Assembly (NCBI RefSeq): GCF_011045215.1
Contig: NZ_CP049201.1
Strand: one strand, 5' to 3'
DNA length: 64,000 bases
Source: Escherichia coli
Lineage (GTDB): Bacteria > Pseudomonadota > Gammaproteobacteria > Enterobacterales > Enterobacteriaceae
In this document: positions 12,726 to 25,851 of the stretch, piece by piece
Layout: every line of letters starts with the position of its first letter
How positions within the stretch are numbered: the stretch's first letter is position 1
Translations under genes and position numbers: made by a program
The notes under the pieces: generated by a model
Databases searched by the model: none
Seen by the model: the letters and a program-made list of their open reading frames with translations, nothing else
What the model was told of the DNA's origin: nothing

Positions 12726-12821
12726 GGCCAGAAAACTGGTTAGACCTGCTCTTTGTCTGGTCTGATTATTGCTGGAAAGAGGCTGGAGAAATTGTAGAGC
12801 GGTTCATTGGAGGGCTTCGCA

Positions 12822-23230: not shown

Positions 23231-23800
23231 ATGAAACGACTCATTGTAGGCATCAGCGGTGCCAGCGGCGCGATTTATGGCGTGCGCTTATTACAGGTTC
23301 TGCGCGATGTCACAGATATCGAAACGCATCTGGTGATGAGCCAGGCAGCGCGCCAGACCTTATCCCTCGAAACGGATTTTTCTCTGCGCGAAGTGCAGGC
23401 ATTAGCCGATGTCACGCACGATGCGCGCGATATTGCCGCCAGCATCTCTTCCGGTTCTTTCCAGACGCTGGGGATGGTGATTTTACCCTGTTCAATCAAA
23501 ACCCTTTCCGGCATTGTCCATAGCTATACTGATGGCTTACTGACCCGTGCGGCAGATGTGGTGCTGAAAGAGCGTCGCCCGTTGGTGCTCTGCGTGCGTG
23601 AAACACCATTGCACTTAGGCCATCTGCGTTTAATGACTCAGGCGGCAGAAATCGGTGCGGTGATTATGCCTCCCGTTCCGGCGTTTTATCATCGCCCGCA
23701 ATCCCTTGATGATGTGATAAATCAGACGGTTAATCGTGTTCTTGACCAGTTTGCAATAACCCTTCCTGAAGATCTCTTTGCCCGCTGGCAGGGCGCATAA
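23231..23800 (+). CDS. ubiX: Flavin prenyltransferase UbiX
   Basis: 189 aa with N-terminus MKRLIVGISGASGAIYGVRLL. Confidence 0.95.
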   Translation: MKRLIVGISGASGAIYGVRLLQVLRDVTDIETHLVMSQAARQTLSLETDFSLREVQALADVTHDARDIAASISSGSFQTLGMVILPCSIKTLSGIVHSYTDGLLTRAADVVLKERRPLVLCVRETPLHLGHLRLMTQAAEIGAVIMPPVPAFYHRPQSLDDVINQTVNRVLDQFAITLPEDLFARWQGA

Positions 23801-23981
23801 CTCCGCTGTTGCCCTGTTTCAGGGCAATTTTGCAACCGCGATCAAATCCTCGACATTTTGTTTCTGCCATTCAATCGAAACGCTGCGATTCAACCGCTAT
23901 ACCTGTTATCTTCAACTTCAGGACAATAATGCAACGTCTTATTAACATATTTAACGTTGAATGTTACTGTTGTCGTCAAGA

Positions 23982-23997
23982 TGGCATAAGACCTGCA
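23982..23997 (+). promoter_or_regulatory. Candidate sigma54 (-24/-12) promoter upstream of argT
   Basis: TGGCAT-N6-TGCAT has the GG and GC dinucleotides at the canonical spacing, ~70 bp upstream of the argT ATG. Confidence 0.5.
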
Positions 23998-24065
23998 TGA
24001 AAGAGCCTGCAAACACACAACACAATACACAACATAAAAAAGCCATTTTCACTTGAGGGTTATGT

Positions 24066-24848
24066 ATGAAGAAGTCGATTCTCGCTCTGTCTTTGTTAGT
24101 CGGTCTCTCCGCAGCGGCTTCCAGCTATGCGGCGCTACCGGAGACGGTACGTATCGGAACCGATACCACCTATGCGCCGTTCTCGTCGAAAGATGCTAAA
24201 GGTGATTTTGTTGGCTTTGATATCGATCTCGGTAACGAGATGTGCAAACGGATGCAGGTGAAATGTACCTGGGTTGCCAGTGACTTTGACGCGCTGATCC
24301 CCTCACTGAAAGCGAAAAAAATCGACGCCATTATTTCGTCGCTCTCCATTACCGATAAACGTCAGCAGGAGATTGCTTTCTCCGACAAGTTGTACGCCGC
24401 AGATTCTCGTTTGATTGCCGCCAAAGGTTCGCCGATTCAGCCAACGCTGGATTCACTGAAAGGTAAACATGTTGGTGTGCTGCAGGGATCAACCCAGGAA
24501 GCTTACGCTAACGAGACCTGGCGTAGCAAAGGTGTGGATGTGGTGGCCTATGCCAACCAGGATTTGGTCTATTCCGATCTGGCTGCAGGACGTCTGGATG
24601 CGGCATTACAGGATGAAGTCGCCGCCAGCGAAGGATTCCTCAAGCAACCTGCTGGTAAAGACTTCGCCTTTGCTGGCTCATCAGTGAAAGACAAAAAATA
24701 CTTCGGTGATGGCACCGGTGTAGGGCTACGTAAAGATGATACTGAACTGACGGCTGCGTTTAATAAGGCGCTTGGAGAGCTGCGTCAGGACGGCACTTAC
24801 GACAAGATGGCGAAAAAGTATTTTGACTTTAATGTCTACGGTGACTGA
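24066..24848 (+). CDS. argT: Lysine/arginine/ornithine-binding periplasmic protein
   Basis: 260 aa with a signal peptide; paralogue of the adjacent hisJ. Confidence 0.95.
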
Positions 24849-25068
24849 TACGTCGCAGGGAAGCTGTGCCTGATGGAATGATCATCATGGTGCACGCCAG
24901 GTTTGTTGCACTATCGTGGTGCATTGAAATGCATACTTAAGCATTTTTAATGAAAAATAATACGCCTAACGGGGCGGGATATTTTGCCTTGATGGTCAAT
25001 TTTATGGCACGATAAGTGTAACAAACCTGTAAATATTCCCTATAAAAAGACTGTCAGTTGAGGACATT

Positions 25069-25851
25069 ATGAAAAAACTGGTGCTATCGCTCTCTCTGGT
25101 TCTGGCCTTCTCCAGCGCAACTGCGGCATTTGCTGCGATTCCGCAAAACATCCGCATCGGTACCGACCCGACCTATGCGCCATTTGAATCAAAAAATTCA
25201 CAAGGCGAACTGGTTGGCTTCGATATCGATCTGGCAAAGGAATTATGCAAACGCATCAATACGCAATGTACGTTTGTCGAAAATCCGCTGGATGCGTTAA
25301 TCCCGTCCTTAAAAGCGAAGAAGATTGACGCCATCATGTCATCGCTTTCCATTACGGAAAAACGTCAGCAAGAAATAGCCTTCACCGACAAACTGTACGC
25401 TGCCGATTCTCGTCTGGTGGTGGCGAAAAATTCCGACATTCAGCCGACAGTCGAGTCGCTGAAAGGCAAACGGGTAGGCGTATTGCAGGGCACCACTCAG
25501 GAGACGTTCGGTAATGAACATTGGGCACCAAAAGGCATTGAAATCGTCTCGTATCAGGGGCAGGACAACATTTATTCTGACCTGACTGCCGGACGTATTG
25601 ATGCCGCGTTCCAGGATGAGGTCGCTGCCAGCGAAGGTTTCCTCAAACAACCTGTCGGTAAAGATTACAAATTCGGTGGCCCGTCTGTTAAAGATGAAAA
25701 ACTGTTTGGCGTAGGGACCGGCATGGGCCTGCGTAAAGAAGATAACGAACTGCGCGAGGCACTGAACAAAGCCTTTGCCGAAATGCGCGCTGACGGTACT
25801 TACGAGAAATTAGCGAAAAAGTACTTCGATTTTGATGTTTATGGTGGTTAA
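25069..25851 (+). CDS. hisJ: Histidine-binding periplasmic protein
   Basis: 260 aa with a signal peptide; first gene of hisJQMP. Confidence 0.95.

Follow-up and report, generated by a model that had tools for sequence, protein, structure and literature searches.

The 64-kb stretch of E. coli DNA analysed here (the window) carries the genes cvpA, purF, ubiX, argT, hisJ, hisQ, hisM, and hisP in this order, all on the + strand. The argT coding sequence (24066–24848, +) encodes a lysine/arginine/ornithine periplasmic binding protein of 260 aa, as assigned from its open reading frame and its RefSeq annotation in 5,425 E. coli genomes. We focused on a short motif in the spacer between ubiX and argT. 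A 601-bp stretch across this motif was matched in 5,425 of 5,426 complete E. coli genomes, with flanks annotated as ubiX and argT, and showed 99.8% identity to the closest complete genomes among the matches listed. The spacer is also overlapped by a 63-aa open reading frame (23809–24000), which we rejected as a gene: just 21 of 80 loci keep the frame open over 60 codons or more, and the conservation is block-like with indels.

The motif, TGGCATAAGACCTGCAT, lies at 23982–23998 on the + strand, points to argT, and was found only once in the window by exact pattern search. Its GG (23983–23984; −24) and GC (23995–23996; −12) dinucleotides are 12 bp apart from start to start, with 10 bp between them, which is the spacing of sigma-54 promoters. 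The core reads TGGCAT-AAGAC-CTGCA and deviates from a TGGCAC-N5-TTGCW-like consensus at 3 of the 12 specified positions. Relative to the argT ATG at 24066, the motif ends 68 bp (3' end) and begins 84 bp (5' end) upstream. The initial annotation of this DNA had described a −24/−12 element of the sigma-54 type with GG and GC 12 bp apart, ~70 bp upstream of the argT start. The element is indeed present on the + strand with this spacing, and the distance was a fair estimate. The start of the annotated interval (23982–23997) is correct, but its end dropped the final T of TGCAT and belongs at 23998.

In a shuffled window, the exact pattern would occur 0.10 times on average, and the looser form TGGCAY-N6-TGCW occurred 4 times against 1.03 expected. 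For scoring, a sigma-54 position-specific scoring matrix (PSSM) was built from 41 published intergenic ChIP-seq motifs (Bonocora et al. 2015), with the argT site left out. The argT site obtained the top score of the window on both strands (15.0 bits), which exceeds the scores of 17 of the 41 training sites (range 8.2–21.6 bits, median 16.1). Scores at least as high are expected ~0.55 times per shuffled 64 kb. By itself, the sequence match is therefore suggestive and not decisive; what is decisive is the position and orientation of the motif, its conservation, and the published binding data. The second-best score of the window (14.3 bits) belonged to CTGGTCTGATTATTGCT at 12757–12773 (+), which is absent from the published high-stringency sigma-54 ChIP-seq sites.

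To describe conservation, argT loci of 80 species (~25 genera of Enterobacteriaceae) were collected by protein similarity, blind to the motif. TGGCAY-N6-TGCW was present in 80/80 species, 66–105 bp upstream of the argT ATG. An alignment of 81 sequences showed no variation in TGGCA and TGC, in contrast to a variable spacer (AAGACC, AAAACG, AAAAAC, and GGTAAG, among others) and variable flanks on both sides; selection on a sigma-54 site would be expected to leave this pattern. Of the 5,426 complete E. coli genomes, 4,586 had an identical 41-bp core.

The motif coincides with a published site of sigma-54 binding. Specifically, sigma-54 ChIP-seq in E. coli K-12 reported site OS22 (motif ATGGCATAAGACCTGCA, centre 2425890, minus strand, gene argT) at 12-fold above threshold, with its predicted start 58 nt away from the gene (Bonocora et al. 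2015). Using the conversion K-12 position = 2449879 minus window position, the OS22 motif maps exactly to 23981–23997 and its predicted start to 24008; among the sites in the published tables of that study, OS22 is the only one within the K-12 range of this window. In vitro, sigma-54 holoenzyme alone binds the ubiX-argT spacer (gSELEX, 61% peak; Shimada et al. 2021). The same study reported a weak holoenzyme peak in vitro (31–32%) in the dedD-cvpA spacer at window position ~20807 (K-12 2429072); we found no strong sigma-54 PSSM match near that position among the best 25 of the window.

Evidence from Salmonella points in the same direction. An 18-mer identical to that of the window is bound by sigma-54 in Salmonella LT2 (ChIP-chip). 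With a promiscuous activator supplied, Salmonella argT expression in the wild type was 3.5-fold higher than that of an rpoN deletion. Salmonella argT is counted among the experimentally known sigma-54 operons, with NtrC as the listed activator. Compared with argTp of E. coli K-12 (b2310), which is the same element (17-mer and position identical to OS22), and with argTr of Salmonella Typhimurium (STM2355), which shares the 18-mer and the gene order ubiX-argT-hisJQMP, the element of the window shows no material difference. Moreover, argTp is already a sigma-54 part in metabolic engineering. The published cloning fragment, which maps to 23810–24007 (−198 to −1), gave strong GFP expression, although it also contains a sigma-70 promoter. 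Our literature search yielded neither a direct mapping of the 5' end nor an experiment on rpoN/glnG dependence for argT of E. coli itself, and the curated annotation in EcoCyc still gave the argT promoter only as 'predicted' in 2015 (Bonocora et al. 2015).

Taken together, we are highly confident that the motif is the −24/−12 core of argTp, from which E. coli argT is transcribed in a nitrogen-regulated manner that depends on sigma-54 (RpoN). It is an already documented promoter and not a new one. The sigma-54 assignment of the initial annotation thus agrees with the published ChIP-seq site in E. coli, with holoenzyme binding in vitro, and with binding and rpoN dependence in Salmonella.

The predicted sigma-54 start at 24008 (+) follows from the rule of motif centre plus 19 bp and from the 58-nt distance in Table 1 of Bonocora et al., and would give argT a leader of 58 nt (24008–24065, +). 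This leader has a GAGGG Shine-Dalgarno sequence at ~24055–24059, and GAGGG is kept across genera. It also includes a CA-rich tract, AAACACACAACACAATACACAACATA (24011–24036, +), whose character is conserved across genera while its length is variable. The tract is probably the target of region R1 of the GcvB sRNA; argT is a GcvB R1 target that has been verified in Salmonella and is described as 'conserved' in E. coli.

With regard to nitrogen control, the initial annotation had proposed that argT is governed by NtrC. This is in line with expression data and with a ChIP-seq listing, whereas support for a direct contact of NtrC with the region upstream of argT is weak in E. coli. argT is listed as up-regulated in nitrogen-starved E. 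coli and as an NtrC target, and a glnK mutation, which makes NtrC more active, raised argTp-lacZ 2.4-fold and argT mRNA 3.2-fold. In NtrC ChIP-seq of nitrogen-starved E. coli, the argT peak was weak (5.4-fold), was missed by the peak caller, and was added by eye; it maps to 23938–24018, over the motif. The peak named 'hisJQMP' reached 23.7-fold and maps to 24858–24938. The main-table text of the NtrC gSELEX study carries no entry at the argT/hisJ coordinates.

The distribution of NtrC boxes was evaluated by a scan with a consensus taken from the literature (TGCACCAnnnTGGTGCA, scored out of 14). Upstream of argT in E. coli, no box above 9/14 was found, and these poor boxes fit the weak NtrC ChIP signal at argT. 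In most other genera (Enterobacter, Klebsiella, Raoultella, Kosakonia, Trabulsiella, Pseudocitrobacter, and others), two positionally fixed dyads lie upstream of argTp, 30 bp apart, with their GCAC...GTGC arms kept and their centres free. A score of at least 10/14 was reached at the distal position in 45 of 81 sequences and at the proximal one in 14 of 81, compared with a chance of ~0.0004 per position. The proximal dyad, which scores 10–13/14 in those genera (e.g., TGCGCCACGATGGTGCA), corresponds in E. coli to TGCCCTGTTTCAGGGCA, a perfect 17-bp palindrome at 23810–23826 (8/14) that starts 172 bp upstream of TGGCA (centre ~−190). The distal position in E. coli, TGCCCGCTGGCAGGGCG (23779–23795), starts 203 bp upstream of TGGCA (centre ~−221), falls inside the 3' end of ubiX, and scores 7/14, as it does in all 7 Escherichia sequences. 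Overall, scores at the dyad positions are 6–9/14 in Escherichia and Salmonella, and likewise in Citrobacter with one exception at 10.

The palindrome TGCCCTGTTTCAGGGCA can also be read as a hairpin, located 10 bp after the ubiX stop codon and followed by AATTTT. It could be a weak ubiX terminator hairpin and a degenerate NtrC dyad at once. The published argTp fragment begins exactly at this palindrome (23810).

Three further blocks upstream of argTp are conserved in 15 genera. Block 1, GCGATCAAATCCTCGACATTTTG (23838–23860), has an invariant GATCA-ATCCT; block 2, CTGTTATCTTC (23903–23913), an invariant TG-TATCTT; and block 3, GCAACGTCTTATTAACATATTTAACG (23931–23956; −77 to −52 of the predicted sigma-54 start), an invariant GCAAC...TTAAC. 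None of the three matched the NtrC or IHF consensus, and with just half-site-like TGCAAC they were left unassigned to NtrC. Such TGCAAC words occur at 23830 and 23932, 102 bp apart. An IHF-assisted architecture like that of glnHp2 found no support at argTp, as the IHF consensus WATCAANNNNTTR had no match at ≤1 mismatch on either strand of 23800–23985.

The best NtrC box of the window lies downstream of argT. Specifically, the argT-hisJ spacer contains tandem boxes at 24878–24923, namely ATGATCATCATGGTGCA (10/14) and, 29 bp downstream of it, TGCACTATCGTGGTGCA (24907–24923; 13/14), and these are situated under the 23.7-fold NtrC ChIP-seq peak. A box of at least 10/14 was found in this spacer in 80/80 species. 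The tandem boxes are 0.9 kb downstream of argTp and ~85–125 bp upstream of a second −24/−12-like motif, ATGGCACGATAAGTGTA (25004–25020, +), which lies 49 bp before the hisJ ATG (25069) and has GT for GC at −12. This hisJ-proximal motif has the third-best sigma-54 PSSM score of the window (12.8 bits). Across 12 genera its TGGCAC is invariant while its −12 region drifts (GTGTA in E. coli, CCGCA in Salmonella, CTGCA in Citrobacter and Franconibacter, CTGGC in Klebsiella and Raoultella). No sigma-54 ChIP-seq peak is reported at E. coli hisJ, supplementary tables included. Between the NtrC boxes and hisJ we also observed a conserved block, AATGCATACTTAAGCATTTTTAATGAAAAATAA (~24927–24960). By its appearance, this block may be the two ARG boxes that ArgR uses to repress hisJ at its sigma-70 promoter. 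In the literature, the hisJQMP genes are described as ArgR-regulated.

It is conceivable, then, that argTp is a real promoter whose enhancer in E. coli is the tandem pair of NtrC sites 0.9 kb downstream, acting by DNA looping, with the induction of hisJQMP largely a matter of read-through. Such a reading is compatible with our main explanation and concerns the location of NtrC alone; we consider it unlikely. It would account for the placement of the best NtrC box (13/14, 24907–24923) under the stronger of the two ChIP peaks (23.7-fold vs. 5.4-fold), for upstream boxes of just 6–9/14 in Escherichia, Salmonella, and nearly all Citrobacter (with the one exception at 10), and for a hisJ motif with GT at −12 in E. 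coli and no reported sigma-54 ChIP peak. NtrC is also reported to work over long distances and from downstream positions (Reitzer and Magasanik 1986). Nonetheless, a lacZ fusion to the argT 'promoter region' at the lac locus responded to loss of GlnK by 2.4-fold, compared with 3.2-fold for the native mRNA, and this ectopic response favours a promoter for which upstream sequences suffice, bearing in mind that the limits of the fragment are unstated in the mBio paper. The −198 to −1 fragment likewise drives strong GFP expression, but includes the sigma-70 promoter, and the hisJ motif, at 12.8 bits, may be a weak promoter itself. An evolutionary form of the same idea seems to us similarly doubtful: in Escherichia, Salmonella, and Citrobacter the upstream dyads would have decayed, a shared downstream enhancer would loop to argTp, and the hisJ-proximal site would have lost its −12 GC in E. 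coli.

The argTp motif also lies close to a sigma-70 promoter. In Table S3 of Schaefer et al. (2015), the sigma-54 motif spans +6 to +22 relative to a sigma-70 start, so that the sigma-70 +1 would fall at ~23976. In the same study, argT mRNA in rpoN+ cells grown on glutamine was 23% of that in the vector control (~4.3-fold lower), and sigma-54 competed with sigma-70 initiation in vitro. The candidate sigma-70 hexamers are TTAACA (23942–23947) and TACTGT (23965–23970) on the + strand, separated by a 17-bp spacer. They match the consensus at 8 of 12 positions; the −35 hexamer is included in conserved block 3, and the −10 hexamer is not conserved outside Escherichia. Our sigma-70 consensus scan of 23780–25100 returned no site at threshold, so the sigma-70 promoter of Schaefer et al. 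would be a weak match. The initial annotation held that a sigma-70 start together with absence of rpoN dependence would speak against its claim. A sigma-70 start is indeed found at argT, whereas absence of rpoN dependence is not, so the claim is not refuted on these terms.

In glutamine-grown cells, the published data show a net negative effect of sigma-54 on argT, which counts against a promoter reading. Schaefer et al. (2015) list argT with mdfA and topA among their 'Class II' repressive sigma-54 sites, and it shows the traits of that class: its sigma-54 motif closely follows a sigma-70 start, and its mRNA is lower with sigma-54. What sets argT apart from mdfA and topA is that it is also recognised as NtrC-induced, and its site would be both brake and promoter. 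Shimada et al. proposed this dual role in general, with a published model of 'repressive' RpoN promoters. Sigma-54 at argT probably both represses and promotes.

A stricter version would hold that the E. coli site serves mainly to park sigma-54, blocking or competing with the sigma-70 promoter while giving little productive sigma-54 transcription. The 4.3-fold lower argT mRNA with sigma-54 than without it on glutamine, the reduced sigma-70 initiation in the in vitro competition, and the general published model of repressive RpoN promoters are what it would predict, and the weak upstream NtrC boxes and NtrC ChIP signal in E. coli, along with the 'predicted' EcoCyc status, can be read in its favour. 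Yet argT belongs to the NtrC-induced set of nitrogen-starved E. coli and rises on removal of GlnK, and the Salmonella promoter, identical in sequence, depends on rpoN once an activator is provided. Good upstream NtrC dyads in many genera, in addition, argue for activation as the ancestral function. Considering that repression and activation are not mutually exclusive, we regard a mainly repressive site as improbable. That the motif is a chance resemblance, with argT transcribed from sigma-70 promoters only and nitrogen control indirect, is extremely improbable, for although ~0.55 matches of such quality are expected per shuffled window and a sigma-70 promoter lies just upstream, sigma-54 occupies exactly this motif in vivo and in vitro (ChIP-seq, gSELEX), TGGCA and TGC are invariant in 80/80 species around a variable spacer, and the orientation and distance to the gene are correct.

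We also compared argTp with well-described systems. It shares with glnAp2, the archetype of NtrC-activated sigma-54 promoters, the GG-N10-GC core, a closed complex awaiting phosphorylated NtrC, and induction under nitrogen limitation. The NtrC sites of glnAp2 lie at ~−108 and ~−140. These two strong sites resemble the two argTp dyads of other genera in being about three helical turns apart, whereas the E. coli argT dyads are weak (7–8/14) and farther out (centres ~−190 and ~−221). The −12 region also differs, with CTGCA in argTp and TCGCT in glnAp2. Like argTp, glnHp2 is a sigma-54/NtrC promoter for the binding protein gene of a nitrogen-scavenging ABC transporter, and both glnHp2 and argT appear in sigma-54 and NtrC ChIP-seq lists. 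glnHp2 uses IHF between its NtrC sites and the promoter, whereas argTp has no IHF consensus at ≤1 mismatch in 23800–23985.

From these observations, a mechanism can be proposed for argTp as a nitrogen-regulated sigma-54 promoter. Sigma-54 RNA polymerase, whose binding has been shown in vivo and in vitro, would contact GG at 23983–23984 and GC at 23995–23996 and form a stable closed complex that would not start transcription alone. Under nitrogen limitation, phosphorylated NtrC would open this complex with ATP, and transcription would begin at ~24008 with the 58-nt leader. For E. coli, we infer the opening step by NtrC from motif geometry, NtrC ChIP, and expression data, while rpoN dependence was shown in Salmonella. 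With NtrC inactive, the parked holoenzyme at +6 to +22 dampens the upstream sigma-70 promoter, as the published RNA-seq and in vitro competition have shown. One element would thus be a brake when nitrogen is in excess and a promoter when it is limiting.

As a discovery, argTp deserves little weight, since it is already on record as a sigma-54 promoter within the NtrC regulon for nitrogen scavenging. Its value is rather one of calibration, in that a real sigma-54 promoter was correctly recognised from sequence alone. For the evolution of sigma-54 promoters, the comparison offers modest leads, namely the lineage-specific decay of the upstream dyads, a possible downstream enhancer, and a hisJ-proximal motif in which −24 is invariant while −12 drifts.
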